A DNA stretch of 64,000 bases from contig NC_088716.1 in NCBI RefSeq assembly GCF_963576615.1, positions 43,495,910 to 43,559,909 on the forward strand, given 5' to 3'. Within the stretch, counting starts at the first letter, position 1. Every line of letters starts with the position of its first letter. The DNA comes from Watersipora subatra. Its lineage: Eukaryota. The notes below the pieces were generated by a model. That model saw only the letters and a program-made list of their open reading frames with translations, did no database searches and was not told the origin of the DNA. Shown one piece after another: positions 23,701 to 61,585 of this stretch. The position numbers and the translations under genes are program-made.

Positions 23701-23780
23701 TTCTTCGCAGTCCTCTACCGTTTCCTCCGCACAGTCCGTAACAGCAGCATAATACAATTCCATACCAGGAGAGAAACACA
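20680..23780 (+). repeat. Composite ~3 kb interspersed repeat, copy 1, ending in the 38-bp array and then the TATATACATACAG satellite.
   Basis: Collinear with 31930-35340 and 40125-43160. Shared landmarks: 'ggagtggtacccgtgatg', 'ttaaccaatctaaatcaagtagcaaaacatggtctgggcag' and 'caatcagataccctaaaggtgagtgtttaggaagctgg'. Confidence 0.75.
22485..23210. repeat. 38-bp tandem array, about 19 copies (aacaatcacctgactgttgccccaactcacttcaatct).
   Basis: Exact 38-bp periodicity. Shorter arrays of the same unit lie at 24538-24721, 34885-35078 and 41565-41755. Confidence 0.9.
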
Positions 23781-24062
23781 GTATATATACATACATACAA
23801 TATATATACATACAGCATATATACATACAATATATATATATAGTATATATACATACAGTATATATACATACAGTATACATACATACAGTATATATACATA
23901 CATACAATATATATATACATACAGTATATATACATATATTGTATGTATATATACATACAGTATATATACATACAGTATATATACATACAGTATATATACA
24001 TACATTATATATACATACAATATATATACATACAGTATATATACATACAGTATATATAGTAG
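23781..24062. repeat. (TATATACATACAG)n-type satellite.
   Basis: Direct repeats. The same satellite occurs at 43175-43608 and 52449-52705, each time abutting the conserved 'cgcacgggtaataaaa...ttgcacagaaaat' module. Produces the artefactual poly-Tyr/Ile/Cys ORFs. Confidence 0.9.
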
Positions 24063-24721: not shown

Positions 24722-25976
24722 TCACTCAATCACTTTCACCTCACTCTTCGACTCCATCTCAGAATGGAATGAGAGACTGAGATAGGATACGTTAGAGTAC
24801 TGTTCAGTTCGAGGTAGTGGTAATGCAGATGCCATACCTGCTGCTGAAGATACCCCACCTTGGGGTGGTAGCGCAGATGACACTCCTCGAGGCAGTAGTG
24901 GAGGTGCTACCGCTGCAAATGCATTTGCTTGAGATAGTAGCGGTGGTGGTGGTGGTGCTTCAGATGTCATAGCTTGAGACGATGATGGTGCTGCTGAAGA
25001 TACCCCACCTTGAGGTGTTGGTGCAGATGACAATACCCTGCCTTGAGGTGTTGATGCAAATGACCCTACCGTGCCTTGAGGTGGCAGTGGAGGTGGTATC
25101 GCAGCAAATGCATTTGCTCGAGATGGTAGTGGTGGTGGTGCTTCAGATGTCACACCTTGGGGCGATGATGGTGCTAGTGAAAATACCCTGTCTTGAGGTG
25201 GTGGTGCAGATGGCACTACTCGAGGTGGTAGTGGTGGTGGGGCGGCTCCAAATAGCATACCTTGAGTTTGCAGTGATGCTGATGCCCTATATTGAGGCCG
25301 TGCCATGGCAATGCGACAGGTTTGTCCGTAGTTTTCTACTGGGGAGTTTGGTACTGGGGATGATTTATTGGACACTTGAGAATCAAATCCGGCATCTTTT
25401 ATCTGGTTAGTTACAGAGATATCATCATCGAAACGTGCTGAGGATTGAGAAGTCATGAAGGATTTTATAGAAGATGAAGTTCGTACCTGAGGACTAAAGC
25501 CAGTCGTTTTTGAAGACCTTTTTTTCATTACTCTGCTAGGAGACAGTTTAACAGGCAAATCTAGTCCCTGGATTAACAGAGGTGCTGCTGAAGTCTTAGC
25601 ACCAAATGATTCAGACTGCTTCGCAAGATTGCACAGCTTTTGTGCAGACATTGGCAATGTGGTTTCAGACTCTTGAGTCATTCCAAAATTCTCCTCCGTA
25701 CCTCTTGTACTCGGCAGCGAATCTGTGGAGTTCATGTGAACATTTTCGTCATCCTTTGACACTGCTGAAAGAGCAGAGACACTTGAAAGGTTTGATAAAA
25801 AGTTTAGTCTAGGTCTAAACTTCTTAGCTGATCTAGGCAGAGAATATCTGGCAGAAGTTGGTGAATATTTTGGAGAAGTTGAAACATGAGCCGCTTCAAG
25901 GTCACCAGGAGGAAGTGGGAAAGAGAGAGATGAACTGAGAGGTTGAGACATTGAAGAGGTGCTCTGCATCCCATAA
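24722..25976 (-). CDS. Large proline-rich coding exon, paralogous copy B (~418 codons). It has a Ser/Thr-rich N-terminal part, followed by repeated PPPLPP / APPPQ / SSAPTPQGGVSS motifs resembling an FH1- or WASP-like proline-rich tract, and ends EMESKSEVKVIE followed by TGA.
   Basis: ORF 24722..25987 (-), whose 'M' is a TTG. Minus-strand acceptor 'tttgaatttag|GTTATGGGATG' at 25977/25976. The TGA forms part of 'ATTGA|gtgagt', so it may alternatively be a splice donor. It is immediately followed by the 38-bp tandem array. Confidence 0.55.
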
Positions 25977-27924
25977 CCTAAATTCAAACAGTACTTTTAT
26001 CATCCCAAGATCATTCAATCAAGTAGGCTTGCATACAATAGATTTTGCTAGAGTGAATGATGGTAATCAGTAACCTTAGCACAACCCATTGCCTTTAAAT
26101 GTAGCCATGCAATAATTAAATACTGTTTTTAAGGAAGTCTTCAAAAAATCACAATGTAATGACTTATTTTAATTTTGTCTTAAAAATGTTAAACGATGTA
26201 TTGTAAAAGAATTATAAAAACAAGTTTAATATACACTGGTATAGTTTAACTCAAAGTCCTTATCAATATATGGTAGAATCAATCAACTAAGCAGGCTCTA
26301 AAAATCTGTTGACGCTCGCTAACACTCTTAGGAGAAATTATAATAATTTAGTTAATTACTTTTTGTGTTTTTTTGTGTTTTATGTTTTTGTGTTTATATG
26401 TTTGTGTTGATTTTTGTGTTTACTATAGTATTTCGGGTTTCTGTAAACTGACAGCCAAGCTAAAATTTATTAAATCCAATCTCTATCTAAAAATCAGCAA
26501 GTCTTATTATCTTATACATGTACTCCAACTATAATATATTATGGCAAGACAAAGCGTAGTTCTTAATTGATTAAAATACACTAGTGTGCTTGTGCCTTTG
26601 CACGCATTTTGAGTTTTAAAGAACACTTTGCTAATCCATACAGTGCAACCTCAGGTTACAATTTTTATCCATTACAGAGTTGGCATCGTATGGGGAGAAA
26701 ATCGTATAGAGAGGTATAGAAAGCATAGTAATTATATAATGCGAACATCCCCTGCTAAAAATCATCAAAACTTTATACAAGTATACTGTACAAATTAAAA
26801 ATTAGCAACAATGTAGTAGATTAACTTTGGTGCCTATAGTTATCTACATCAACTTTAGTATATTTAGAGTATTTATTGGTTATAATCTGCATTAAAATGT
26901 AACATTGGAATGCGCTATGAGCAGTACATACCGTAGAAGGTTCTTACCTTCAAGACAGACAGATGTATAACATAGACTTTTAATTCATTTTAAATGAGTT
27001 TAGCTTACTAAACACATATTTAAAGCTAAGTTTTTGTATGTATTTTTAAACTATTTTATTGAATTTCAACTTTTCACTACTAAAATTTTATCACCTATCG
27101 GTTTCTGGCTCTGTTTTCAGTGTAACTTTTAGTCGACTTGATTAAAACCTTTTTAATCTAATTCGCCAGGAAGCCTGAGCTATGCTGTTCTCGAAGATGT
27201 TCTGTTTAATATCTAATGAAGTGGATTTTTGTTAGCAGGTTAAAAGAAGTTGCCTGACCACTGAACTTCCGTTTGAAGGGACTGCAAGTCTAACTTTGCT
27301 ACTGGTTTTTAAGGGAAAATATTAGTATTTTTCACATGAAAAATGCTGAACTGAGAGAAATTCTAGACTAATTGTCTAGAACTAGCCTAGAACAAACAGC
27401 ATCAGTAACTAAAATCTAGCTGCAACAGATCAAACATCTGACTCTAACCACATTCTCAGACAGGTTTCAAGGGTAGTTAAGGTGAATAGGGCAATTTGAC
27501 TCGGTGCTTCCTGAATGAACACATTTTGAACAAACTTAAGCGTCCAGGAAGAGGGCTGGCAAATATATTATAAAACATCTCAAAACATACGCAATTAAGA
27601 ACAGATTTTGTTGCTTTCTACGCAGCATTAAGAAAAAAGGTAAAGACTTGCATTATGATGGAGTGATATTGTCTTTCCGTTCATTGAACTTGCCTGAAAG
27701 ATTATCCAAACCAATATTATAAAAGTCATTGAGTTCAAACATTCAGTAAACTGGCAATAAATTCTTCTTGAAACTCCAGAAAAAACAATTGACAGCAACT
27801 TATTATTTTATCAATAGTTGGGAATGTCTAAAAAATGCTATGCATACAAAAATCTACTGTATACTACATAGTACAGAAAGTGCAATTCTGGTGGGTAACT
27901 GTAATTTACATGTATATGGCTTTA

Positions 27925-40124: not shown

Positions 40125-43100
40125 CATGAAGTTTGAATTAGCTGAAATGTTCAATACCCAATATAAAACTAAAAGTCACATCATGTAATCTTTCATAGGA
40201 AAAGAAAATTGATTGTTAACCAATCTAAATCAAGTAGTAAAACATGGTCTGGGCAGATACGGCTCTAAACGTTTACACAGGACCAATAAAGTTAGGTGTC
40301 AACAAGACTAGATATTAAGTGAGATAGACAAACAAAATTTGAGTTCATCTCATTGACATCATTTGCTTAAACAATGGTTAGGGTCAAGACCTTTAGTTAA
40401 ACAAAGCATTAGAGTCATTTACTGATTGTCACATGGAGCCACGAGAATCATTGCAAATTGAAAGGGCAGCCAGAAACTTTGTAAAAAGTTGTCTGAAGAG
40501 GGAAAAGATCATCAAGAGAGGAATTGCTCATTCCTAACATTAAATATTAAAACTAGTTCATTCAATGGCTGATTTGGCAGTCTGAGAATGTCAGAGACTA
40601 TAAACTGGCATAATAAAGACATGAAAATTCTTGATATGCAGTTTTAAACAAAAAATAATACATTGACACTGACCGATGTAATAAATAATTTATTTACCAA
40701 ATAAAAATATACAGTTAGACTGATATAAAGAGTACAAACTTATAAAATGAGGTCATGTGATTGAGCAGCTCTTTGTGCTCATTGATTGGTTGGCAGTCGC
40801 ACTACTTATTTTAGTCACACTACTTATTTTAATCTAAACCACCAGTAGGCCTGGTGATGCTTGGGATTTTTCATTATCAATCAGATACCCTAAAGGTGAG
40901 TGTTTAGGAAGCTGGTTCATAGGAACCAGATGGAGTTTTGAGATCAAATACTTTAGTGACCTGACTAAATAAAAGAGCATATGCCGGTGAAGTTTGGAAA
41001 ACATCAGCCAGTAAACATCCACAATTTTTTCAAGAATATGATAAATAATAACAATGAATAGAGAAATACTCTGGACAAAAACTGAACGAACCTGTCGCAG
41101 GTGCTGATCGCCGGGCCTTAATAGAAGCATCCCTGCACCGATCCACTAAATAGTAAGAAAACATGTTATATGAGTCAAATTATTACACAGAAGTAATTAT
41201 ACTCTACTAAACATAATTAGACTAACACAAAAGTAATGCATGATGCCGACAGCAAAGACAGTGGCTTTATAAACACATGAATGATGCTATAACTAGGTGG
41301 TAATAACCTTAGGACCTCGATAGAGTCAGGTAATAATCATGTATATGATGATCACTCCCTCTTACGCTACAGATATCGAATACCGATAAGTATTCGAGCA
41401 CCAATAACTCGAGCTGACATTTTGCTGAAGAGTGAGCTTAATGGTTAGCTATATGCCAAAGCTTAAATTGATCCAAATCCTTAACAAGCAAACACAACTC
41501 CCTTTCCCCATCAGCTTTCTATCACGCATGAAGTTGTGTAATCAAGCAGATTATCTCTATGTCCACCAATCACCTGACTACTGCCCCAACTCACTTCAAT
41601 CTAACAATCACCTGACTGTTGCCCCAACTCACTTCAATCTAACAACCACCTGACTACTGCCCCAACTCACTTCAATCTAACAATCACCTGACTGTTGCCC
41701 CAACTCACTTCAATCTAACAATCCCCTGACTGCTGCCCCAACTCACTTCAATCTATTAATCACGTGGCTGCCTGGCTTATGCTTGCTATGATTGATGTGT
41801 TCTATTTACATAATGTAAGAATGAAGGGCTTGACAGGAACCTAATACAGGGTCAAATTGTGACAATAAATATCTGAAAATCTAAAATATCTAACAATTTC
41901 ACCATTCAAGTATTTAGGCGCTAAAATTCTCCCACCAAGTTTCTTGTCACAGACACCCTTTACCAAGCCGAAGGTCTTTGAGATTCATGTAAGTGATTTT
42001 TTGCATGACAACCACTATGATATTATTGGAGCATATATGTTATATCTACATTAACTTAACAAACAGTTATAAACTTTTAACAGAATAGTCATCTCATCAA
42101 ATTTGGAAATATGCCAACAAGTTATTTAACGGGTTTTGAGATGTTAAAGGTTGACTTGCAACAAAATTCACATTACCGTTATTTGATATGAAAAGATTCA
42201 CCATGTCTTACTCTGTTGTGTTGTAGGTGCAAAATATGTGGAAAGGTGATTACAAGCTCTTAAAAGCTCAAAAACGAACAGAAAATCGCGGCCACACGAG
42301 ACCGCCGTAGTTTGGATTCCCTTTCCAAAACGGCTCAAATGTGATGTAGTTGTGAGAGATGGTTTCCGTTTACACTTTCTTGCAACCTTAATCGTCGAAA
42401 TATTTTCACAAATATACTTCACGCATTCAATAAAACTATGTCTATTGATCTTACGCGTCTGTTTTATTGTCATCGTAATGCTGGCACTTTTAGCACTGAT
42501 ATCTTATAACTTACCGTGAAAAATTCGTTAAACTTTTTAACCTTACCTCGAATGAGTACATATCATTGTCTGATAATCGTGACGAGCCTGTTGGTCACCT
42601 GTGATAATCGAAAAGTGCTGCAAAAATTATTTGCGAAGTATTGGGTCACGTGATCAGATTACGACTTGACGATTGAATAATGCCGGAACAAAACTGTAAA
42701 GTAGCGAACATCTATATTCGATACGGGGTCTTCGGTGAAACCCGAAGTGTTTGTCATAAACTAGTACTGCGATAAGTTTTATATTGAGCTTTGTATTGGC
42801 CTTTCAATTAACGTGAGAATATACGTGACAAGACGATAACCAAATTTCGTGGTTACGTCATCGAAATAAAGAGAGTCCAATCTACGGCGGCTTTTCGTTT
42901 TTGAGCTTTTAAGAGCTTGTAATCACATTTCCACATATTTGGCACTTACAACACAGCAGAGTAAGACATGGTGAATCTTTTGATACCAAATAACTGTAAT
43001 GTGAATTTTGTTGCAAGTCAACCTTTAACAGTTAATAACAGCACTTCCACCCAGCATACATTCTTCCTTCTCTTTCATTACCTCCATACAGACAATCTTC

Positions 43101-43160: not shown

Positions 43161-43174
43161 TGGAGAGAAACACA

Positions 43175-43608
43175 GTATATATACATACATACATACATAC
43201 ATACAATATATATACATACAGTATATATACATACAGTATATATACATACAATATATATATACATACAGTATATATACATACAGTATATATACTGTATGTA
43301 TATATACTGTATGTATATATACATACAGTATATATACATACAATATATATAAATACAGTATGTATATATACATACAATATATATACATACAGTATATATA
43401 CATACAGTATATATACATACAATATATATATACATACAGTATATATACATACAGTATATATACTGTATGTATATATACTGTATGTATATATACATACAGT
43501 ATATATACATACAATATATATAAATACAGTATGTATATATACATACAATATATATACATACAGTATATATATATATCTACAGTATATATATAGTATATTA
43601 ATTTTCGG
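43175..43608. repeat. (TATATACATACAG)n-type satellite.
   Basis: Same family as 23781-24062. Source of the artefactual ORFs 43032..43692. Confidence 0.9.
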
Positions 43609-44569: not shown

Positions 44570-44719
44570 TGGATATACAACATATATATATATATTTATA
44601 TATATTTACATATATATATTTATATATAATTATATATATAAATCTATATAAATATAAAAATATATATATATATAAATATCTATAAATATATATATATTTA
44701 TATATATAAATATATATAA

Positions 44720-44751
<32 letters not shown>

Positions 44752-44830
44752 ATTTATATAAATATATATATATATTTATTTACAGTGTATATAAATATAT
44801 ATAAATAAATATATATATATTTATATATAT
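44570..44830. repeat. AT-rich microsatellite (TATATATTTA/TATAAATA variants).
   Basis: Direct inspection. Confidence 0.9.
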
Positions 44831-44849
44831 ATTTCTCAAAGTTAGTGTG

Positions 44850-44960: not shown

Positions 44961-45467
44961 CCACTGAGCTATGCAGACATAAATGTGTTGCACTTATCAT
45001 ACAGTGTATACCGTACGCACACGGTGCAAAAGTGCAGGCCAAATATGCACTTTTGATTATTAACTAATATTACCTTTTGCATTGGTTATTTTTTGAAGCT
45101 GTTGAAAAGCTAATTTTTGCTACCACTACTTATATTTTTAATTTGTAATATTTAAATGTGCCGTTTCAATTTCAAATGTTGGTTATATTTCTAGTTCCGG
45201 TTTTCCGTAATAGTGGAGAAGCAGCCCAGAGCTATCTTTCACTCTTATTTATATAAATATGGAGAATAAAGTAAGACCAGATTCTTGGCCAGAATTTTAT
45301 GCTGAGTTTAATGATATAGTTTCTACACCTATAACTGGTCACATTTAGAAGTTCTAGGACGATTTTATTTTGAGAGAGGACAACTCCTAAAATTTCGGAA
45401 AATTGGTATTTTTCTGTTTGAAATTACTGCTACGAGTCAAGTTTTCACATTTAAGAGTTATAAAAGC

Positions 45468-45758
45468 ATGGATGATAAGGAGTGTGTCTTCCATTGTGTG
45501 GAAATTTGTGGGGAAACCTTGGTTAGGGTCACAGCACAGCAGTGGAAAACTGCTCAGGAGTACACACGGAAGTGGACTGAGTTGGATGATGAACTTAACA
45601 TAGTAATTGCAGCTAACATTCTTGAACATGAGTCACACACAAACCTTGTTTGTCACTATGCATGCTACAAAAAATACTGCAATAAGTTACTCTTGGAAAG
45701 AGCTGAGGCCAGACATGGGAAGAGAAAATCAGCAGAGGATGCTGCCAGCTCTGAAGAG
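45468..45758 (+). CDS. Exon 1 (97 codons) of a large transposon-like gene: MDDKECVFHCVEICGETLVRV...HTNLVCHYACYKKYCNKLL...SSEE. It is Cys/His-rich and looks like a putative zinc finger.
   Basis: ATG in a good Kozak context (aaaagcATGG). Donor 'GAAGAG|gtgggtac'. The phase is continuous through exons 2-5. Confidence 0.6.
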
Positions 45759-46038
45759 GTGGGTACTGTGGTGTCCATCCATTTCACCACTGGGCACTGA
45801 ATAATGTTGCTCTTCATTGTTTTTATTGCCATTGTGATACACATAAATTATATATTTATTATTAATAAATCTCTATATTCATATTGTTTTACAAGTTTAG
45901 TAAGAGCAAAGCAATGTCATTTGTGCTCCATTTGTGTTAACTTATTTGAAAGTTTACATGGTGTTTGGTGACTTCCGTCCATGTTATAGTCATGCACTGT
46001 TACAATGACTGTTTATTTGTGTCATGAGTTTATTCTAG

Positions 46039-46198
46039 AAAACCACAAAAAGAACAAGGTCATTTGGCACTGTTAGAGGAACTGGTCCTCGTTTACCTCA
46101 GTTGTGCATCATATGTCAGAAGAAAGATAAATGGTTGAAGAAATCGGGAAAGAAAACTGTAAGAGATACGCTAGTCAAAGCACAAACCTTGACAGCAG
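46039..46198 (+). CDS. Exon 2 (phase 0 to 1): KTTKRTRSFGTVRGTGPRLPQLCIICQKKDKWLKKSGKKTVRDTLVKAQTLTA.
   Basis: Acceptor 'ttattctag|AAAACC' and donor 'GACAGCAG|gtgatg'. Confidence 0.55.
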
Positions 46199-46313
46199 GT
46201 GATGAATCAAGTCTTGTTACAAATAGGCTGCATGATTATGACGACCTACTTAGCCCTTTATTACTTCCAAAATAACCAATCGACATAAATTTTTGGCATT
46301 CACTTTTTTATAG

Positions 46314-46476
46314 GATTGCTGATTGACTACACCAGAAGACGGCCAGATGGACAAAAGGTATTGGATTTAATTGGTCAGGACCCAGATTTGGTAGCTATGG
46401 AAGCGAGATACCACAGAGTATGTTTCAGAGAATTCACCCGCCAAGACTTTAGGACAACACAGCCAGCCGTACAAAG
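46314..46476 (+). CDS. Exon 3 (phase 1 to 2): GLLIDYTRRRPDGQKVLDLIGQDPDLVAMEARYHRVCFREFTRQDFRTTQPAVQ.
   Basis: Acceptor 'cacttttttatag|GATTGC' and donor 'GTACAAAG|gtaagcc'. Confidence 0.55.
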
Positions 46477-46706
46477 GTAAGCCATTTTGTTTGCCTGCAA
46501 TCAATCTAACTTGAACATATACTGTATATAAGAGAATAGAGAATATATCTATATCTCTAAGATATAGATATATAGATATATACTAAGATATATATCTATA
46601 TCTTAGAATAGAGCTATCTAGCAATGGCACATTACCTTGTTAAATTCTGGGCTTTTTGGGGTCATTGGTGAAAGTTTTTCATTGCTTTTTATATTGATGC
46701 TTTCAG

Positions 46707-46865
46707 AGAATCAGATCCATACACTGAAACGTACCGGAAATACTTTATGCCATTCATCCAGAAAAAGATTGTAGAGCAAGGCAAAATATATAGATTGGTG
46801 GCACTGACCAAAGTCTTCACCAAAATGATAAACAAGTATGAGGATAAAGCCGTCAAAACATTTCA
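46707..46865 (+). CDS. Exon 4 (phase 2 to 2): RESDPYTETYRKYFMPFIQKKIVEQGKIYRLVALTKVFTKMINKYEDKAVKTF.
   Basis: Acceptor 'gatgctttcag|AGAATC' and donor 'CATTTCA|gtaagtgg'. Confidence 0.55.
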
Positions 46866-47029
46866 GTAAGTGGCGACATTGAAAAACTAATAATATTCTT
46901 TGATGGCAAAACTTATTCACAGTAGGTCTGAATAAATATGATAGCATGTGTTACGATGTGTTACTCTAGATCTGGATGTGTTTTTTTTTGCTAAAAAAGT
47001 TCAAATCATGGCTACTTTTTTATTTATAG

Positions 47030-48875
47030 GGCAGAACAACTGAAGCGCTTACTACAACGAGACTGCCCAACTTTGATTATGCATGCACAGACAAAGAAAG
47101 AAGGTATAAATGTCTACCATCCATCAGCAGTTGATCATTGCAGCGATGAAGACACTGATACATACACAACAGATGATGCTGCCTCACAGTACTCCATGAG
47201 CCCTCTCAAGTTAGGTGGGACACACAATTTACAAACTCCCCTCCAATCAGCCTACTACACTCAAATCATGTTAAGCAATTCTTTAGATGAACACTCCTAC
47301 AAGACGCCATGGCCTTTAACATCTGCCCATGTCAATCTCAAATCATTTGAAGAATCTGTACCTGAGGAAATTTTGCAATTTGTTGGTACACTCCTGCAAT
47401 CTCGCTCAGGGATGCCTATCCCACATTCTGATAAAGTCAAAGTCACTTCAGTTTGCCAGGATTTGGTTATGCTCATGTCAAAGGGTCAGCTTACTACTCC
47501 AAAAGCGTTGGCATTGGGGCTAGTTGTCAAACATTTGACTGGATCTAAAGAGCTGATAAATATTCTTCATAACATGGGGCACTGTGCATCATATGACAGC
47601 ATACAGAGGTATGAAACATCACTTGCTATGCACTCACTTGAAAACCAGTCAAAAGTGCCAGACAACTTTGAGTATGGACAACCCATAGTGGTGGTATGGG
47701 ATAACATAGACTTCTTGGAAGCGACGAGAACGGGCCACAATACTACACAACACACAAATGGGATATTACTTCAACTACGTTTCCAAAAACCCAAAACCAA
47801 AACAGACAAACAAAATCGACCACGCGGTGGAACTAGAACACTAATCCAATTTACTGAATCAATAGACCACCTGCCCACATATTCAAGAACAAACCCTGCA
47901 CATTTGAATGCAGTTGAGATCTCTCCCATACAAAGAATTCTTGACACTGACATTCTTGAGTTCCAGTTTGCCCTTGTACGCAGGCAAAACGAATACAGCA
48001 AGCCTAGCTGGACTGGTTTCAATAAGATGTTTAGGCAAGCTGAAAGCTCTCCCAAAACTGAGATTATGTACCTGCCAGTGATACAGGCTGCCCCTACTGA
48101 TATTGAGGTTGTAAATCAAGTTCTTCAGAAAAGTATCGATGACGCTGACAAGTTTGGTATAGAAACTGCAGTAGTAGTGTTTGACCAAGCTATATATTGT
48201 AAAGCACAAACTATTCGCTTCCTCAATCCCATTCTGATGTCAAGACTTGTCTCTAGATTAGGAGATTTCCACACAGTGATGGCTTTTCTTGGTGTGATAG
48301 GCAAAAGGTATGGTGATGGTGGGTGGGCTAAAATAATCACAGAATCGCAATGTATCGCTGAAGGAAGCCTGAAAGGGGTGATCAATGGTCACAGTTACAA
48401 TAGGTCCATCATGGCACACAAACTTTGCATGGAAGCACTGTATGACCTATTGTTGGATGAATTCGCTGAAAGTCTTGAATCCTCTAGTGCCCTTGACTTT
48501 TTTAGTTTGTACGTTAGTAGAGCTGTTTCCAATCACACTGAATGTAATCAATCTGAACTCGCCCACATGAATCAGGCATTCCAAGAGTTTATAGTCACCT
48601 CTTCAAAAGGCAACCCCACATTTAGATTCTGGGTAGAGTATATTGAAATGGTGACACAACTGCTAAGTTTTGTCCGCGCCACAAGGGAATCTGATTGGAA
48701 CCTCCATGTCAACTCACTACATAGACTCTTGCCATGGTTTTTTGCATACGACCACTCTAACTATGCAAGGTATGGGCACACTTTACTATATGGAGATGAC
48801 GCAGCTGGCAAAGACTCACCCCCTAATTTACCAAGCAATGACAGATCACCGTGGTTATTCTACCTTTCAATATGA
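47030..48875 (+). CDS. Exon 5, the large central domain (~600 codons) of the transposon-like protein. Motifs seen: VVVWDNIDF, AVVVFDQAIYCKAQTIRFL, LGDFHTVMAFLGVIGKRYGDGGW, HKLCMEALYDLLLDEF.
   Basis: Acceptor 'tttatttatag|GGCAGAAC' at 47030. The frame is continuous with ORF 47073..48875. The open frame ends at 48875, but homology continues in another frame, so a frameshift lies near 48780. Confidence 0.6.
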
Positions 48876-51016
48876 GCATCACCGCCCATTCTCCAGCGTT
48901 GCCTGTGATATGGCGATAGAACAGACTGTCAATCGGAATTCTAAATCACAGGGAGGTCTCATTGGATTCACAAAAACCCAATCTGCCTCACAGAGATGGA
49001 CCATGGCGCATCCACAAAGGACAGCTGTGCACACAGAAATAAAAAACCTTCTAGAATTGGACTCCACTACTCAGACAAGCACGGCTTGTCAGAATCAGCA
49101 TGGAAAGCTGACGAAGATATAAGATGTATCATCAAAGAAATCATATTAGCTCGAATCAACCTATTCAAGCACAAATGTAAAAACCTTGTCTCTATCGTCA
49201 GTAGAGTGGAGGCTTCAACTGACATTGCCTATGATTTACAAAATGCAAGACAGATCGGAGAAAAGCAGTTTCAAGATTTTGTCACCAAACGGATGGCAAC
49301 TCAAGAAGTAGAATTCAATGCACCAATAAAGGCAAAGAAACTGAAAGATTTTGCTTTGAGTCAAAGTGCTAAGAAGACTTCTAGTAAGAAAAATCTACAG
49401 TGTACAGGACGGATCTTTGATCGTCTTCTTGTAATCAGCCAGCAGAGGAACATCGATCTTAGAAAAGTACTTTCTTATTCCCTTGGCAATGTAAGCTGGA
49501 GCCTGGCAAATGCGGATGGATTGATGATGAAGACAGCTAAGTCTACCCTTATGACAGCATTGGAGAAAGAGCTAGAGCCACATCCAACATGTTACACAAA
49601 ATTTGAAAACCTTCCAAAATTTGATGCTGTGGTCATTGATGGAATGGCTGAGATTCAAGCTTTGAAACCCCCAGCAACATTCGGAATGGTTGCTAGTGTC
49701 CTATTGAAAAGGCTAGCATCAATCGCTACATCATATGGCTTTTCTCGGGTGGATTTTGTCTGTGATAGCTATCCTGAGGCCAGCATCAAATCAACAGAAT
49801 GAATGCGTCGTGGATTGAAAGGTAGTCAAAAGGTGACAATTTTTGGATCGAATCAAATGGTACCAAAATGGTCAGACTTCTTGGCAGAGAAGCTGCCAGG
49901 AAGTTAACAAAGAAGTTTTGGTGGCTTTCTTGAGTAAGGAGTGGAGCAGTGCACAGATCAAACAGGATCTTGATGTATACATAGCATTTTCTTCCAAGTG
50001 CAACAAGATCAGTTTTCAAATGGATGGGAACACTAGTAATAAAATTATAGTGAGTCTAGCATCAGATCATGAGGAAGCTGACACAAGAATGATAGCACAT
50101 ATAATGTCTATCATGGAAGACTAAGGATCGAACTGTACGGTGATGATAAAGTGTCAAGATACAGATGTGTTTATGATTTGTATATCTTTGGTACATGAGC
50201 TTCCATCAGATCGATTGTACTACTTCTGTGGGAAGAAAGAACGAATGCGATACATACACATTGGAAATGTATCAGGTATTCTAACACCGCCCTACTGCCA
50301 AGCACCTCTGGGTCTACATGCACTCAGCGGTTGTGATAGTATCAGCGCATTTCATTCAAAGGGAAAGAAATCCTTTTTGAATTTGCTCAATCAGAACCCT
50401 GAGTTCATCAACGTATTAAGCTCTTTGGGCTTAGAGTTTGAGGTTGATGATGATACTCAGCAGGCTTTATAATATTGACACAACTGAAAAGGTCAATGAA
50501 GCAAGTTATTTGGTTTATTGCTCTCCCTCAAGGATTTCCCAAGCTAACCTTCCTCCAACCCAAGATGAATTGAGGCTGCATGTAATGAGAGCTGGTTACC
50601 AAGCAGCCATATGGCGTAGAGCTGTGCAGCCAACAATTGATCCACCCCTACCCACTAATCATGGCTGGACTTTGTATAATGGAAATCTCAAAATCACATG
50701 GATGACACAGAACCCAGCGCCTTCTGATGTGATGAAAGACATGTTTTGTTGATGTAAGACAGGATGTTCATCCAATAGATGCCAGCGCCAGAAGGCTGGA
50801 CTCAAATGTACAGATATGTGCCAGTGCAAGGACTGTGGAAACAAAACTGGTGTTGAAGAAGAGAATACAGATTCTGATGAGGATGTCGGTAAAGCTAGGT
50901 TATTATACATCAAGTATCAGGTTATTTCTTTGAAAGTTTGCAGAAAATTTCCACTCATGATACCTTTCCCTGATACCAGACAGAAAAAAAATTCTACATT
51001 TTGGTCCAATCTTTAA
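48670..51016 (+). pseudogene. Degraded C-terminal half of the same gene, carrying the PIN/FEN-like 5'-nuclease motifs and the Cys-rich CXC-like tail.
   Basis: ORFs 48670..49122, 48996..49802, 49843..50124, 50140..50472, 50438..50752 and 50816..51016 form one continuous protein once frameshifts at ~48780, ~49090 and ~50470 are allowed for. There is an in-frame TAA at 50122-50124 (SIMED*GSNCTVMIKCQD) and an in-frame TGA at 50749-50751 (MFC*CKTGC). The motifs are SLASDHEEADTRMIAHI, VMIKCQDTDVFMICISL, ALSGCDSISAFHSKGKKSFLNLL and CKTGCSSNRCQRQKAGLKCTDMCQCKDCGN. Confidence 0.6.
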
Positions 51017-52448
51017 ACAGCTGTGACAGTTTTTGATTCATTTTTCCTTCTTGTAGATGTATAGGAGATAACACACAGTCATGGTGCTACATCAGACCGA
51101 CAGACAGACAAATTATGTAATCCATTATATTATATAATATCGTGTATAAGTTCAAATCTATGCAACTTAGAAAGATATAAATATTAAATCTGAAATATAC
51201 TACAAATTCTGATCTTGATTGATGTGTTGCAACCTCTTTGCTTTCCCCAAATGATGAACTGGAGAAATTTGAAATTATATCATTAAATTCATGTATTACA
51301 TAATACATTATGAAAATGTTGTGGCCAGTTGAGAGAATTGTCAATTACATACTCAGAACAAGCTTCAAATTTTAGTCCAAAAACACATGGAATTTAGTGG
51401 TATTCACAATTATATTTAATACATACTTCAAGTTACGCATCTAACTTACATAATAATATCATGTAATATAAATTCAAATCCATCCGTTTTTGAAATCTTA
51501 TAATATGATATTTGAAATCAGCTACAAATTTGGATCTAGTTTGATGTATCACAGTCCCGCTCTGTTCTGGTCGAACTTGTAAATTATAAAAATTATATTA
51601 TTAATTTATTGTATCATATAATACATTATAATTAGTCTGGTGGCTAGTTTAGAAGTGTAGAAACTAGATATTCAGAATCAGCATAAAATTCTGGTCTAGA
51701 ACATTATTTCAGCATATTGTCCATCCTAATATAAAATAAATCAATTTTTTTGAGCACTTTATGGTAGGCTGCTGCTCCGCTATAAGGTTTGATTGCTAAA
51801 TCGGTAAAGGAAAATATTTTTCACGCGGTTAATTGTATTATCTCGAGTAGGAATAGCCTTTACATTCTCTTTCCGTTCGGTCAGACAAAATACCAGACAA
51901 AGACAGTCCGATATCTCATTTTTAGATTTGTACCAGTATCAAGAGGTACCAGTATTGTCGTATTGAAAGTTTTGATAGATTGCGTCTGCTGGAACAGTAA
52001 CCTTTTTATACACACACACGCACACATTTCTATGCAATAATTGTTATTATTAATTCAACATATTCAGGACTTTTATACTACTTTCTCAGTTCGTAATAAT
52101 TGTATCATTACCAAACCATCTTTTATTGTAATCGTAGCTAAACAGGCTTAATTTAGCTATTACTAATAATTATTTCATATTTATATTTAAACACTTTTAT
52201 AGTTGTTTTATTTCGTTCCTTAATTTATTTTACCTGCACAAAATTTTTTCCTCATAATTTGAAATTTAAAAGTTACAGTTGTTTGACAAAGTTTGAAAAC
52301 CTTTACAGTTTTATTTTTTCTCTTAATTTATTTAAACTGCACAAAACACTTTTCACATGATTTGAAAGTTAGAATGTTAACTGTTGTTATATGTTAAATA
52401 AAAATGATTTTTCTGTGCAAAGAATTTTATTACCCGGGCAACAACGGA

Positions 52449-52491
52449 CATTCGTCTAGTGTATATATATATATGTATATATACATATGTA

Positions 52492-52525
<34 letters not shown>

Positions 52526-52705
52526 AGTTGCATATATATATAGTTTAGATACAGGGAATATATACAATATATGTATATTCCCTGTATATATGTTGTATAG
52601 ATACTGTGTATATATATAGTATATTCAGGGAATATATATATATTGAATATAAACACTGTATGTATACAATATATATATATACATGTACAGAGAATATACA
52701 TTTCT
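52449..52705. repeat. (TATATAC..)n satellite next to a reverse-oriented copy of the 'cccgggtaata...' module (52300-52450).
   Basis: The reverse complement of 52300-52450 matches 37575-37700 and 24060-24180. Confidence 0.8.
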
Positions 52706-54134
52706 TACGTTATTACTACAAGTAAAACAACAATAATAGTTATCATTAATTCTTTCGCAACGAAATGTTTTTACCGAAACAAATTGGCTCATATAAGTTT
52801 TCATAACATTTGACCAAATTAATTTGCACAAAATTTAACATCATCTGATCCAATAAAAAAGTCACAATTGTGTTGCAGAAAGAGTTCAGCCACCTTTTGT
52901 TCTCTTCATACTACCATGGTTGACAAGTTGAGCATGTTCTGAGTCAGACGAGTTGAGTTACCGCTATTACTATAGCTTACATCATTATCGTTATTGTTAT
53001 TATTACTTCATTGCTTACATCATTATTATTACCTACCTACTTATTACCTACCATTATTATTACCATTTCCTAGCAATTAAGAAGCGATATGATAGGCTAA
53101 TTATACACAGCGGACACTCGTCTTACAATTTTAATTCATTGTAGTGATGTCATCGTCTAGTAAAAATGTCATGTAGAGGGGTATAGAAACCCATAGTAAC
53201 TATCCAATAGAAACACCCCTGGTAAAAATCATCAAAATTCTATATACGTAGTGTACATATTAAAAATTAGTAACAAAATAGTATATTAACCTTAGTAACC
53301 ATAACTACCTACAGTTACTTTAGTGTATTTAGTGGTTATGATCAGCAATAAATTTAATATTACAATGTACAGTGCACCCTTAGGATACGGTTTTAATCCA
53401 AACTTGATACGAATTTCCACTTTTTATCACTAAAACTTAACGCAATTTGCTTATGGCTTCGTTTTCAATATAATGTTAGTCGATCTTATTAAAACTTTTC
53501 TCAACATAATGCGGCAAAAAAACCCAAACGATGCCGTTTTCGCAAGAAGTGGATTTTTGTTAGCAGGTTAAGAGAAATTGTCTGACCATTGCCCTTCTGT
53601 TTGAAGGGATCGCAACTCCAACTTTGTGATTGGTTTAATGGGAAAATATTCCCGTTTTACACGTGAGAATTGCCACACTGGAAGAAACCGGTCATTGTGT
53701 TTCTTTCAAACAACATTTACGGCAAACATCAATTTGGTGTCTTCGCTATTTTGACGTACGTAATAAGCACACCAGCTGCTAAATTTGAACTCAGGCGAAA
53801 ATTTTGTTGAATTTTTATGGTGAAATAAGATTCGTATGGTGATATGAAAAAATCATCATGTTCCAATTCGTAAGGTGACAAAATCATATATCAAGGTTAT
53901 CGTACCCTGAAGGTGCACTGTATAAAAGTATAAACAACTAACTACAAGAAGTATGACACAATAATCTCGGACATGGCAATAAGTAAGACATGCATCACAT
54001 TACACCAATGAAGATGAACAACTTGAAAACTATTTGCGGAGCTCATGTGTCGGCATTTGAAAATTGTGGGTTCTCAATGTAGCTCCAAACTTAATGGTAT
54101 GTAATCAATGCAAGAGTGTAACAGAAATGTTACG

Positions 54135-56452
54135 TTCTCCTAGCATGCTCTTACATGTATATATATGTTCTCCTAGCATGCTCTTACATGTATATATATG
54201 TTCTGCTAGCCTGCACTTACATGTATATATATGTTCTGCTAGCCTGCACTTACGTGTATATGTTCTGCTAGCATGCTCTTACATGTATATATATGTTCTG
54301 CTAGCATGCTCTTACATGTATATATATATGTTCTGCTAGCATGCTCTTACATGTATATATATGTTCTGCTAGCATGCTCTTACATGTATATATATATGTT
54401 CTGCTAGCATGCTCTTACATGTATATATATGTTCTGCTAGCATGCCCTTACATGTATATATATGTTCTGCTAGCATGCTCTTACATGTATATATATGTTC
54501 TGCTAGCATGCTCTTACATGTATATATATGTTCTGCTAGCATGCTCTTACATTTATATATATGTTCTGCTACCATGCTCTTACGTGTATATATATGTTCT
54601 GCTAGCATGCTCTTACATGTATATATATGTTCTGCTAGCATGCTCTTACATGTATATATATATGTTCTGCTAGCATGCTCTTACATGTATATATATGTTC
54701 TGCTAGCATGCTCTTACATGTATATATATATATGTTCTGCTAGCATGCTCTTACATGTATATATACGTTCTGCTAGCATGCTCTTACATGTATATATATG
54801 TTCTGCTAGCATGCTCTTACATGTATATATATGTTCTGCTAGCATGCTCTTACATGTATATATATATGTTCTGCTAGCATGCTCTTACATGTATATATAT
54901 GTTCTGCTACCATGCTCTTACATGTATATATATGTTCTGCTAGCATGCTCTTACATGTATATATATGTTCTGCTAGCATGCTCTTACATGTATATATATA
55001 TGTTCTGCTAGCATGCACTTACATGTATATATATATGTTCTGCTAGCATGCACTTACATGTATATATATGTTCTGCTGGCCTGCACTTACATGTATATAT
55101 ATGTTCTGCTAGCATGCTCTTACATGTATATATATGTTCTGCTAGCCTGCACTTACATGTATATATATGTTCTGCTAGCATGCTCTTACATGTATAAATA
55201 TGTTCTGCTAGCCTGCACTTACATGTATATATATGTTCTGCTAGCCTGCACTTACATGTATATATATGTTCTGCTAGCCTGCACTTACATGTATATATAT
55301 GTTCTGCTAGCCTGCACTTACATGTATATATATGTTCTGCTAGCATGCTCTTACATGTATATATATGTTCTCCTAGCATGCTCTTACATGTATATATATG
55401 TTCAGCTAGCATGCTCTTACATTTATATATATGTTCTGCTAGCATGCTCTTACATGTATATCTATGTTCTGCTAGCCTGCACTTACATGTATATATATGT
55501 TTTGCTAGCCTGCACTTACATGTATATATATGTTCTTCTAGCATGCTCTTACATGTATATATATGTTCTGCTAGCATGCTCTTACATGTATATATATGTT
55601 CTGCTAGCCTGCACTTACATGTATATATATGTTCTGCTAGCATGCTCTTATATGTATATATACGTTCTGCTAGCATGCACTTACATGTATATATATTTTC
55701 TGCTAGCATGCTCTTACATGTATATATACGTTCGGCTAACATGCTCTTACATGTATATATATGTTCTGCTAGCATGCTCTTACATGTATATATATGTTCT
55801 GCTAGCATGCTCTTACATGTATATATATGTTCTGCTAGCATGCTCTTACATGTATATATATGTTCTGCTAGCCTGCACTTACATGTATATATATGTTCAG
55901 CTAGCATGCTCTTACATGTATATATATGTTCTGCTAGCATGCTCTTACATGTATATATATGTTCTGCTAGCATGCTCTTACATTTATATATATGTTCTGC
56001 TAGCATGCTCTTACATGTATATATACGTTCGGCTAACATGCTCTTACATGTATATATATGTTCTGCTAGCATGCTCTTACATGTATATATATGTTCTGCT
56101 AGCATGCTCTTACATGTATATATATGTTCTGCTAGCATGCTCTTACATGTATATATATGTTCTGCTAGCCTGCACTTACATGTATATATATGTTCAGCTA
56201 GCATGCTCTTACATGTATATATATGTTCTGCTAGCATGCTCTTACATGTATATATATGTTCTGCTAGCATGCTCTTACATTTATATATATGTTCTGCTAG
56301 CATGCTCTTACATGTATATATATGTTCTCCTAGCATGCTCTTACGTGTATATATATGTTCTGCTAGCATGCTCTTACATGTATATCTATGTTCAGCTAGC
56401 ATGCTCTTACATTTATATATATGTTCTGCTAGCATGCACTTACATGTATATA
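54135..56452. repeat. 2.3 kb minisatellite of 33-35-bp units (gttctgctagcatgctcttacatgtatatatat, with variants cctgcacttac/tcctag), about 68 copies.
   Basis: Direct periodicity. The 33-bp unit has no stop codons in several frames, which creates the long artefactual ORFs 55008..56435 (-), 55013..56470 (+), 55345..56463 (+) and 54409..55011 (+). Confidence 0.95.
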
Positions 56453-56734
56453 CAGTGGTGTGAAAAATAAATGGACCACCTTATAAAACTTGGTCATTGC
56501 TAGCGCTCAGCACTCAAGGTGATTAAATCCCTCATTAAGCTCTTGTTATTGAGTAGAACCTATACATAGTATACATCAAAAGAAAGCTTAGAATGAGTAG
56601 AACTTGATGAAACTAATTTTAGCTTGAAACAACAATGTTAGATAAGTTTTAGAGAGAGTCAAAGTTAGCAATTATTTTTGGCATTTCCACTCATTTTGAA
56701 TAAAATTAAACCTTTATTTTATTTATGTTCAAAC

Positions 56735-57580: not shown

Positions 57581-57949
57581 TGAAAGAAAAAATGTAACTT
57601 GAACTTACCGTCTAAAGCCATGCAATATATCGAGCTCTCAATCGAGCTCTCACTCGAGCTCTCACTCGAGCTCTCAATCGAGCTCTCACTTAAGCCTGAA
57701 ATACAAATAACAACATGGATATGCAAGTATTAGTCTATAAATTTCTCAATCGCAAAAGTCTAGTTAGGCTTTGCCTGACAGAGTACAGCGTAATCTGTAT
57801 GAGTTGATTTGATAGCGGCAGCAATTTAAAGTTAGATTATCTTCCTGTAACAAAAAGTGACATATTTTGGAAATTGTCTTCCAATCTGCTGTGCACAGGT
57901 CAGGCACTCTCAATTGTTGAAGCATGGCTGCTCATCTATGTATAGTATA

Positions 57950-58127
57950 TATATATATACATATATGTTTATATATATGAACATATGTTTATATATATAT
58001 ACATATATATGTTTATATATATACATATATGTTTATATATATACATATATGTTTATATATATACATATATGTTTATATATACATATATATATATATATTA
58101 TATATATATATATTTATATATATATAT

Positions 58128-58159
<32 letters not shown>

Positions 58160-58170
58160 CACATACAGGA
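57950..58170. repeat. TA-rich microsatellite (tatatatacatatatgtt-type units).
   Basis: Direct inspection. Produces the artefactual ORFs 57857..58212. Confidence 0.9.
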
Positions 58171-59448: not shown

Positions 59449-60567
59449 GTGCAGCGTATGAAGAACTGGGCAGCACCTGGCCATGACATGATTCAAGCCT
59501 TCTGGTTGAAGAAATTGACATCACTTCACACTAGAATGGCTAAGCAGATGGAATGCCTAATAAAACAAGGTGACCATCCAGAATGGCTGACCAAAGGACG
59601 AACTGTACTTCTGATAAAAGATCCAAAGCAGGGGCCAATTCCCAAAAACTATCGACCAATAACGTGCTTGCCCACCACTTGGAAACTGCTCTCCGGAATA
59701 GTTGCAGACAAACTGGAAGAGCACATGAGTCACTATATGACCATCGCTCAGAAAGGAATTGGGCGCAACACCCGAGGAGCCAAACATCAGTTACTGGTGG
59801 ATCGGACGATCTGTCAAGACAGCAGGAAAAGGCAAACCAATCTTGCCATGGCTTGCATTGACTACAAAAAGGTCTATGACTCAATTCCCCATAGTTGGAT
59901 ACTTGAGTGCCTCAGTATGTACAATGTTCACCCTGCTCTTGTGGCATTCATCAAGATGTCAATGACCAAATGGAAGATGGAACTGGAGGCTAATGGCAAA
60001 AAGCTGGCGAGTGTCAAAATTAAGCGAGGCATCTATCAATGTGACTCCTTATCACCGCTGCTCTTCTGCATATGCCTAAACCCTCTAAGCAATATGCTGG
60101 AGGAGACTCAATATGGGTACCAGTTTAAGAATGGCACCAAGATGAACCACCTCTTCTACATGGATGACATCAAGCTGTACGCTAACAAAGAAAGGGACAT
60201 TGATTCGCTAATACACCTCACTCAGGTATACAGCAAGGACATCGGAATGACCTTCGGTATTGAGAAATGTGGAAGGCTAACTCTTAAGAAAGGCCATTCT
60301 ATGTTCACAGATGGCCTAAGAATGCCAAATGGTACCATCAAAGATATAGAAGAAGGGTACAAGTACTTGGGGATTATGCAAAGCAACATCAACCACGAAG
60401 CCAAGGTACGTCACAAAGCCATTACAGAATACAAGAAACGCCTTCGGCAGGTCCTACGGAGCCAGCTCAATGCCAAGAACCAAGTCATGGCAATAAATAC
60501 CTACGCACTGCCAGTAATAAGATATCCATCAGGCATAATAAAGTGGACTGAGGAAGCCATCAAATAA
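59449..60567 (+). CDS. Reverse transcriptase domain of the LINE.
   Basis: PGHDMI, ITCLPTTWKLLSGIVADKL, IDYKKVYDSIPHSW, QCDSLSPLLF and FYMDDIKLYA correspond to RT motifs 0-5. The 'M' at 59449 is internal to the element ORF. Confidence 0.7.
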   Translation: MQRMKNWAAPGHDMIQAFWLKKLTSLHTRMAKQMECLIKQGDHPEWLTKGRTVLLIKDPKQGPIPKNYRPITCLPTTWKLLSGIVADKLEEHMSHYMTIAQKGIGRNTRGAKHQLLVDRTICQDSRKRQTNLAMACIDYKKVYDSIPHSWILECLSMYNVHPALVAFIKMSMTKWKMELEANGKKLASVKIKRGIYQCDSLSPLLFCICLNPLSNMLEETQYGYQFKNGTKMNHLFYMDDIKLYANKERDIDSLIHLTQVYSKDIGMTFGIEKCGRLTLKKGHSMFTDGLRMPNGTIKDIEEGYKYLGIMQSNINHEAKVRHKAITEYKKRLRQVLRSQLNAKNQVMAINTYALPVIRYPSGIIKWTEEAIK

Positions 60568-60733
60568 ACAGATATAGCAACTCGTAAACTGCTGACCATG
60601 CATGGAGCACTCCACCAAAAATCTGACACTACTAGATTGTATCTTAATAGGAAAGATGGCGGTAGGGGATTCAAAAGTGTACAGCAGACAGTGAAAGAAG
60701 AGGAGCAAAGCATCAAAAGCATATGCAGCCTCC

Positions 60734-61585
60734 ATGGCCATTTCAGATAAGTTGCTAGCTGAATTTCAATCGGCTGCTCTTACAACGGACCTACGCCCTG
60801 ATGATGAGGAAATTGACTGGCACGCGAAACCTCTTCATGGTGGTTACCACCAACAAATATCTAAGGTTGGCGATCTTCACCAGACATATATGTGGCTGAA
60901 CAAAGGACACTTAACGGCCAATACAGAGTCGCTAATCATGGCAGCCCAGGAGCAAGTGCTCCCAACAAGGCAATTCCAAACAAAAATCTATCACACTAGG
61001 GACGATCCTAGATGCAGACTGTGCAAAGATGCGCCTGAGACCATTCAACACATCATCAGTGGATGCAAGCAGCTAGCAGGAAACGCATACACTGAGCGGC
61101 ATAATCATGTCGCAGGTGTTGTGTATAGAAGTCTATGTGATGAGTATGGCCTTAATAAACCACAACACCTGTGGGAAGCTCCTGGTAAGGTCAATAAAAA
61201 TGACCGCGCTAAGATCCTCTGGGACTTCTACATCCGAACTGACAAGCATGTCCTAGCAAACCAACCAGATATAGTGGTGGTAGACAAGAAAAACGAAAGG
61301 GCTACTTTAATAGATATAGCAGTACCCAATGACTACAATATAGCCAGCAAAGAAAAAGAAAAGGTAGAGAAATATCTCCCTCTTGGAGAAGAAATTGAAA
61401 AATGCTGGAATGTAAGAACAACTGTAATACCAGTAGTCATTGGGGCATTGGGCGCAATAACACCGGCGCATAAAATGTGGCTTGCCCAAATACCAACAAA
61501 AATCAACTCAGGTGAGTTGCAGAAAAGTGCGCTATTGGGAACAGCTAAGATCTTGAGGCGAGCGCTCAAACTCCCAGGTCTCTGA
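60734..61585 (+). CDS. C-terminal CCHC zinc-finger plus restriction-enzyme-like endonuclease (RLE) domain of the LINE. It is frameshifted relative to the RT.
   Basis: C-x2-C-x8-H-x4-C followed by RHNHV, then (Q)PDIVVVDKK...ATLIDIAVP...KEKEKVEKY, as in R2/R4/NeSL/HERO endonucleases. It lies +1/-1 out of frame from the RT ORF, which ends at 60567. Confidence 0.65.
   Translation: MAISDKLLAEFQSAALTTDLRPDDEEIDWHAKPLHGGYHQQISKVGDLHQTYMWLNKGHLTANTESLIMAAQEQVLPTRQFQTKIYHTRDDPRCRLCKDAPETIQHIISGCKQLAGNAYTERHNHVAGVVYRSLCDEYGLNKPQHLWEAPGKVNKNDRAKILWDFYIRTDKHVLANQPDIVVVDKKNERATLIDIAVPNDYNIASKEKEKVEKYLPLGEEIEKCWNVRTTVIPVVIGALGAITPAHKMWLAQIPTKINSGELQKSALLGTAKILRRALKLPGL

Follow-up and report, generated by a model that had tools for sequence, protein, structure and literature searches.

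The window analysed here, a 64-kb stretch of DNA from the bryozoan Watersipora subatra (chromosome assembly: Wellcome Open Res 2024, PMC12902671), contains a large, spliced and broken transposon gene, initially annotated at 45468–51016. The gene lies within an element of 6,572 bp (45211–51782) that extends past it at both ends. Terminal inverted repeats (TIRs) and a 3-bp target site duplication (TSD) bound the element, which bears out the view that the gene belongs to a transposon. We are highly confident that it is a single old copy, now inactivated, of an autonomous AcademX transposon. Academ is a superfamily of cut-and-paste DNA transposons in eukaryotes, and AcademX is its XPG-nuclease lineage. 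The family is already named and little studied, and the copy adds one member to it; since the element falls in a named lineage, the earlier idea of an under-described family falls away. Work by Kapitonov and Jurka from 2010 is said to be a source for AcademX DNA transposons. According to Kojima (2020; PMC7165386), AcademX elements combine a transposase with an XPG nuclease plus a Cys8 finger, generate a 3-bp TSD in animals and have termini with a 5′ pyrimidine and a 3′ purine. The features of the element are as follows:

45208–45210: left TSD, TAA, identical to the 3 bp past the right terminus
45211–45342, + strand: left TIR, terminal 16 nt TAGTGGAGAAGCAGCC, with a degenerate inner part at 45245–45342
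45468–45758, + strand: exon 1, with the start codon and the N-terminal Cys/His module (C6, H9 ... H63, C66); open frame, GT donor
46039–46198, + strand: exon 2, with AG/GT bounds; contains LCIICQKKDKW (CxxC) and is collinear with intronless P0174
46314–46476, + strand: exon 3, with AG/GT bounds; contains RYHRVCFREF (HxxC) and is collinear with P0012 and P0174
46707–46865, + strand: exon 4, with AG/GTAAGT bounds; collinear with P0012 across both junctions
47030–50896, + strand: exon 5, the remainder of the transposase–nuclease–CXC protein, broken by four frameshifts and three stops
47688–48936, + strand: DDE transposase core (RNase H-like), with D1 at 47700–47702, D2 at 48183–48185, GDFH within 48255–48281 and E at 48919–48921
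49626–50370, + strand: FEN/XPG-like 5′-nuclease, acidic motifs in canonical order
50747–50842, + strand: C-terminal Cys cluster, the AcademX ‘Cys8 finger’, probably of CXC (tesmin/LIN54) type from profile and Pfam TCR matches
51640–51782, − strand: right TIR, ending ...GGCTGCTGCTCCGCTA
51783–51785: right TSD, TAA, the same as the left

How far does the gene hold together? The five exons proposed in the initial annotation all stand at their coordinates; every intron is GT..AG and the phases agree, exons 1–4 measuring 291, 160, 163 and 159 nt with phase kept. The junctions were tested at the protein level, against relatives without introns. P0174, a single open reading frame (ORF), aligns unbroken across exons 1, 2 and 3 (38% identity, E 2e-36), and the alignment of P0012 spans exons 3, 4 and 5. 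P0163, a W. subatra gene model, joins ...PAVQR to ESDPY... exactly at the predicted exon 3/4 junction. The predicted intron positions are thus supported, at the protein level, by intronless relatives.

A protein of over 1,500 amino acids (aa) had been proposed. After conceptual repair the protein indeed measures 1,543 aa, but as it stands the spliced reading is open over 872 codons only, until the TGA at 48873–48875. The proposed gene end at 51016 also needs correction: coding homology stops near 50896. When mapped by tblastn with intact homologues, the coding frame falls into segments 47031–~48775, ~48778–49065, ~49074–49886, ~49906–50450 and ~50462–50896. There are four frameshifts (~48776, ~49070, ~49895 and ~50455) and three in-frame stops (TGA 49800, TAA 50122 and TGA 50750), seven disabling lesions in total; one conserved Cys is also changed to Arg. 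The encoded protein cannot be made by this copy. Residues 148–1527 of the repaired protein nevertheless align, at 35% identity, to one continuous frame of a near-intact element, L002, found in an ENA metagenome assembly via P0045. On neither strand of 45211–51782 is there an ORF of more than 110 aa other than those of the transposase gene, so the element has no helicase gene. Every motif quoted in the initial annotation is present in the window, all on the + strand:

47688–47714, + strand: VVVWDNIDF
48168–48197, + strand: AVVVFDQAIY
48255–48281, + strand: RLGDFHTVM
50065–50091, + strand: DHEEADTRM
50149–50175, + strand: KCQDTDVFM
50323–50370, + strand: LSGCDSISAFHSKGKK
50753–50842, + strand: CKTGC...CKDCGN

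What is the long central domain? The Academ-like identity that had been guessed for it is confirmed by BLASTP against the de-gapped transposase-domain sequences of Data S3 in the supplement to PMC7165386, where an alignment of 86 sequences is printed. The window protein matches the Academ-2_SP domain at 39.7% identity over 433 aa (E 1.5e-80), Academ-4_BF at E 2e-68 and Academ-1_AMi at E 4e-52, and the architecture is identical to that in the paper. The fold of the domain is RNase H-like. D1 lies in WDNIDF, D2 in VVFDQ and the catalytic E in CDMAIEQT. The D1–D2 spacing of 161 aa is inside the range of 138–192 aa published for Academ, in which a G/A/E/QxxH motif follows D2 (PMC7165386); here GDFH lies 26 aa after D2, and the E 247 aa after D2. 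An insertion between β2 and β3 is present, as in the Academ hallmarks, and in the transposase model an all-α region follows β5. The initial annotation had set a PIN-like nuclease against a DDE/RNase H fold. The nuclease is present, but the long central domain turns out to be a DDE/RNase H-like transposase in its own right; the nuclease adds to the DDE transposase and does not replace it.

The transposase region also has a sub-threshold match to Pfam DUF6589 (PF20231; E 0.012) at window 48100–48780, protein residues 547–841. The match runs from β3 through the insertion domain, and a precomputed match exists in the homologues P0009 and P0040. DUF6589 may be no more than the core of the Academ transposase.

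The C-terminal part had been proposed to be a FEN/XPG-type 5′-nuclease, and this assignment stands: the acidic motifs are kept in 50 homologues, and the fold search returned structures of the FEN group only. In the window the acidic residues are located as follows:

49638–49640, + strand: D of IDGMA
49764–49766, + strand: D of VCDSY
within 50071–50082, + strand: E, E and D of EEAD
50158–50166, + strand: D and D of DTD
50335–50337, + strand: D of GCD, followed by GKK

Among the 50 aligned homologues the D of IDGMA, the D of VFDxY, H-E-E-A-D-T-R, D-T-D, and G-C-D followed by GKGK are invariant or nearly so. All of the individual carboxylates (D82, D124, E225/E226/D228, D254/D256 and D313) occur in the window copy, and in the homologues each is invariant or conserved to at least 90%. 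A profile search of PDB sequences gave collinear local alignments to human EXO1 at a marginal E of 0.04. HMMER aligned VFD to EXO1 residues 75–99 and GCD..G.G to residues 220–264, only these two motifs being aligned; the equivalence of the other carboxylates follows from motif order. A structure was modelled (AlphaFold/AF2) on the intact homologue P0043, which is collinear with the window protein. Its predicted local distance difference test score (pLDDT) is 83 for the whole model and exceeds 90 over residues 220–650. The first 39 Foldseek matches of this model in the PDB are all 5′-nucleases of the FEN-like group, with probabilities of 0.96–1.0 (1.0 for the best-scoring). They include XRN1/2 (with yeast Rat1), T5 FEN, EXO1 (with plastid exonuclease 1), FEN1, Rad2 and XPG, at E-values of 1.9e-6 for XRN2, 1.1e-4 for T5 FEN, 1.3e-4 for EXO1, 8e-4 for FEN1 and 1e-3 for Rad2. 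The nuclease is FEN-like in fold and active site and lies outside the curated XPG family models. Transposase and nuclease occupy one polypeptide, with the nuclease C-terminal: homologues carry both in one ORF, and a single frame of L002 contains the two.

The nuclease and the CXC cluster are separated by a strongly conserved segment (window 50549–50700, protein LPPTQDELRLHVMRAGYQAAIWRR...HGW...W) with an invariant PP, R and W. It was modelled as a helix plus a β-hairpin, and it matches no known family.

The cysteine cluster proposed at the C-terminus is probably tesmin-like, as suggested. The profile used for the nuclease also matches the CXC domain of LIN54 (5fd3) among the PDB sequences at E 7e-4. 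Pfam TCR (PF03638) matches the window at E 0.05 and 22 of the 50 homologues at E ≤ 0.1 (best 8e-5); two TCR scores, 14.3 and 16.9 bits, are under the 23.5-bit gathering cut-off. The spacing, C-x-C-x3-C-x4-C-x-C-x6-C-x3-C-x-C-x2-C, fits CXC. Seven Cys are at least 90% conserved in the homologues; in the window copy one conserved Cys has become Arg and a neighbouring codon is a stop. From the LIN54 and TCR matches, the AcademX ‘Cys8 finger’ is probably a CXC/tesmin-type cluster.

What of the metal-binding pattern proposed in exon 1? Among 1.8 billion representative proteins, exon 1 alone finds 14 true homologues, at E 1e-20 to 2e-4; one further match, P0172, proved to be a spurious bacterial repeat protein and was rejected. 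Only C6, H9, H63 and C66 are conserved among the 14. The ligand set therefore differs from the earlier proposal: metal binding is plausible, but the full set of Cys then listed is not conserved. The profile of this region found nothing below E 0.35 among PDB sequences. The N-terminal Cys/His region is presumably a DNA-binding region, and the conserved CxxH...HxxC / CxxC...HxxC pattern could be an undescribed DNA-binding module.

The ends of the element were found by scanning the window for YAG...CTR termini with identical 3-bp flanks, which gave one outstanding solution. They could be resolved because TAG...CTA termini had been learned from the supplement to PMC7165386, in which Acropora AcademX termini read TAGTC...GACTA with 3-bp TSDs, and from L002, which is bounded by TAGGCCATGGGCCAG...TTGGCCCATGGCCTA TIRs with TTA on both flanks. 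A blind brute-force search of the window for TIRs with a TSD returned AT-rich chance pairs only. The TIR ends read 5′-TAGTGGAG...CTCCGCTA-3′, with a 5′ pyrimidine and a 3′ purine. The terminal 16 nt match the reverse complement of the right end at 14 of 16 positions (TAGTGGAGAAGCAGCC versus TAGCGGAGCAGCAGCC). The inner block (45245–45342 versus 51739–51640) is 79% identical, with a score of 65 against 26 ± 2.5 for shuffles; overall the arms are 79–88% alike. Exact matches to the 17-mers CCAGAATTTTATGCTGA and ATAGYGGAGMAGCAGCC occur within the 64 kb at these two inverted sites only, and each scan also gave one unrelated match with three mismatches. Alternative ends near 45185/51817, from a permissive alignment, were rejected, as no TSD is found there.

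Several points weigh against this reading of the element. For the TSD there is one 3-bp match, set in AT-rich DNA and with a chance expectation of ~0.02, in one copy only. The inverted similarity runs ~25 bp beyond the proposed termini; because it continues outside, the exact ends are the best reading and are not certain. The transposase model was built from the window sequence and ends before the catalytic E, and the nuclease model is that of P0043, 47–52% identical to the window, and not of the window protein itself. Pfam XPG_N/XPG_I, 5_3_exonuc and PIN are not significant on the window pieces (E ≤ 1) or on the 50 homologues, one of which matches 5_3_exonuc_N at E 0.064. The Pfam hits that the initial annotation had anticipated for PIN, XPG and 5_3_exonuc are thus missing, the window frame pieces giving weak DUF6589 and TCR only. 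The nuclease assignment consequently rests on fold, motif conservation and the marginal EXO1 profile match.

The similarity outside the termini is perhaps that of the target site, itself an imperfect palindrome. When rebuilt, the insertion site ...TTCCGGTTTTCCG-TAA-GGTTTGATTGCTAAATCGGTAAAGG... (45185–45210 plus 51783–51817) is an imperfect palindrome, and the empty target site would read ...CCGTAAGG... The target of L002 (5969–5975, 12888–12895) is a perfect palindrome, CCTTAAGG. A palindromic target may reflect a target preference; in the supplement to PMC7165386 the palindrome is not obviously shared by the few Acropora flanks. Near the right end, in the 3′ untranslated part of the element, 51134–51377 and 51453–51696 are direct copies of ~244 bp that are 68% identical. 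The second overlaps the inner right TIR, and the two may be subterminal repeats.

Is there more than one copy? The window itself holds a single copy; the gene model P0163 points to at least one more in Watersipora. It is the only close relative of any part of the element: 92% identical in exon 3 (against P0163 residues 148–195) and 81% at the start of exon 4, with close matches in the range 88–92% aa. P0163 is a chimera of leucine-rich-repeat (LRR) exons and exons 3–4 of the transposon (against window 46334–46767), after which it jumps, out of frame, to sequence like window ~49944–49970 in the nuclease region. As read from its sequence it is probably an internally deleted transposon copy absorbed into a gene model, and from this match it follows that the family has at least one other copy in Watersipora. 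Relatives at 32–60% identity turn up often, both in metagenome and Logan assemblies and in the genomes of cnidarians, crabs, fish and hydrozoans; their database names, where given, are generic or plainly wrong. Exact-product lookup gave no match for the window ORF or for P0163, and a degenerate TIR-pattern scan of metagenomes gave no further copies. L001, a 4-kb contig of P0001 with 59% aa identity, was set aside as too short and too distant to be of use.

Could the open 5′ part belong instead to a host gene, domesticated (exapted) from an Academ transposase and expressed via the spliced N-terminal exons? In its favour are the open stretch of 872 codons at the start, the four intact introns and a W. 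subatra gene model that holds a fragment of the family. However, the downstream two fifths, which include the segment leading from the DDE core to its E and the nuclease, carry the four frameshifts and three stops; TIRs and TSD are still recognisable; and the W. subatra model consists of LRR exons joined to a deleted, partly out-of-frame piece of transposon. We consider domestication very improbable. An intact, active AcademX whose lesions are errors of assembly or sequencing would fit the survival of all catalytic residues of both enzymes in the conceptual translation. Against this stand seven independent lesions, of which three are substitutions that create stops, a Cys changed to Arg besides, and TIR arms that have diverged to 79–88% identity. 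This pattern of lesions and TIR divergence speaks for age and not for indel errors, and we give the error reading very little credence.

A different large-protein superfamily carrying a nuclease (KDZ/Zisupton, P, hAT or Kolobok) is scarcely credible. Academ transposase domains are matched over their full length at up to E 1e-80, whereas Pfam gave no transposase family at E ≤ 1, be it KDZ, hAT, P or another; and the nuclease, Cys cluster and 3-bp TSD are the exact AcademX combination. The KDZ-like guess of the initial annotation fails on the same evidence: neither the KDZ (Kyakuja-Dileera-Zisupton) transposase nor the CxC1/CxC2 domains gave a Pfam family at E ≤ 1 on the window, the only hit being the weak DUF6589. 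We conclude that 45211–51782 should be masked as a DNA/Academ repeat, with no gene call there.

The finding extends AcademX to a bryozoan host, and this could be the first record of AcademX in Bryozoa. It points to the AcademX ‘Cys8 finger’ being a CXC/LIN54-type domain and reveals a conserved N-terminal Cys/His region. The modelled fold confirms the ‘XPG’ domain as a complete nuclease of the FEN type. The reason for a flap-type nuclease in a DDE transposon is a question of the family, which a degraded copy does not advance.

How would an intact element move? It would produce a single protein of ~1,540 aa from the five-exon gene, with, in order, the N-terminal Cys/His region, the DDE transposase with its long α-helical insertion, a FEN/XPG-type metal-dependent 5′-nuclease and the CXC zinc cluster. 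The transposase would bind the TAG...CTA TIRs and excise the element, and insertion at a 3-bp staggered cut would give the TAA duplication. These catalytic steps we infer from homology, and what the nuclease does from analogy with TnsA of Tn7: the FEN-like nuclease would probably process the 5′ strand that is not transferred, or intermediates with a flap or gap. Kojima (PMC7165386) speculates that the nuclease couples to DNA repair.

The remainder of the window contains other repeats and ORFs:

17865–18398, − strand: ORF paralogous to, and shorter than, that at 24722–25987
24722–25987, − strand: Pro/Ser-rich ORF of 421 aa without a Pfam match
42133–42281 and 42891–43039: 149-nt inverted repeat whose arms, 609 nt apart, are 92% complementary
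43170–43600, 44570–44835, 52460–52700, 57934–58165 and 23780–24060: AT-rich TATATAC-like repeat (YIYIY in ORFs)
54409–56470, both strands: ~2 kb of short tandem repeat open in several frames (MLAEHIYTCKS, YMYIYVLLAC), satellite- or minisatellite-like
59449–61585, + strand: two adjacent ORFs of a non-LTR (long terminal repeat) retrotransposon, one a reverse transcriptase (RVT_1, E 5e-26) and the other a zinc-binding zf-RVT region (E 5e-5)

The TATATAC-like blocks are 70–85% alike and occur in both orientations; two lie 400–700 bp outside either end of the transposon. The inverted repeat at 42133–43039 could be a miniature inverted-repeat transposable element (MITE) or a foldback-type element. 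Near the Pro/Ser-rich ORFs, 26656–26912 and 18661–18917 resemble 53123–53367, and the sequence of that region suggests a local segmental duplication.

How does the element compare with known systems? It is most like the AcademX elements, such as Academ-2_SP of Strongylocentrotus purpuratus. It shares with them a single large protein that joins a DDE transposase to an XPG/FEN-like nuclease and a C-terminal Cys cluster, the D1–D2 range, the GxxH motif, the 3-bp TSD, the 5′ pyrimidine and 3′ purine, and TAG...CTA ends like those of Acropora. It differs in that most AcademX families have one long ORF (‘often, but not always’) whereas the window gene has four N-terminal introns; in that its bryozoan host is absent from the host list of PMC7165386; in that the copy is a pseudogene; and in that the conserved N-terminal C/H region lies outside the three domains of that paper. 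AcademH/AcademHP elements have a homologous DDE transposase core. AcademH, however, has a separate RecQ-like helicase, TSDs of 9–10 bp and neither nuclease nor Cys8 finger, while the window element shows the opposite, a nuclease and CXC cluster with a 3-bp TSD.

With FEN1, EXO1, XPG/Rad2, T5 FEN and XRN the nuclease shares its fold (by Foldseek), the same order of acidic residues (D; D; E-x-D; D-x-D; GxD) and a Gly-rich, helix-turn-helix-like motif after the acidic series. Identity to this group is ~10–13%, under the Pfam thresholds, and the window nuclease differs in being fused downstream of a transposase; it is no nearer to XPG than to XRN or T5 FEN. The cysteine cluster has the spacing of tesmin, TSO1 and LIN54, but as a single CXC unit against the tandem pair of LIN54.

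A DDE transposase accompanied by a second, unrelated nuclease recalls, by analogy, TnsB and TnsA of Tn7. TnsA cuts the 5′ strands and so completes excision; it has a restriction-enzyme fold and is a separate polypeptide. The FEN-like active site of AcademX, for its part, is conserved in full among more than 50 homologues that come from several phyla. We put forward tentatively, and judge it more doubtful than probable, a two-nuclease transposition in which cutting and joining of the 3′ ends would fall to the DDE domain and cleavage of the 5′ non-transferred strand, or of a flap, to the fused FEN-like nuclease. AcademX would then be a eukaryotic counterpart of Tn7 TnsA/TnsB.

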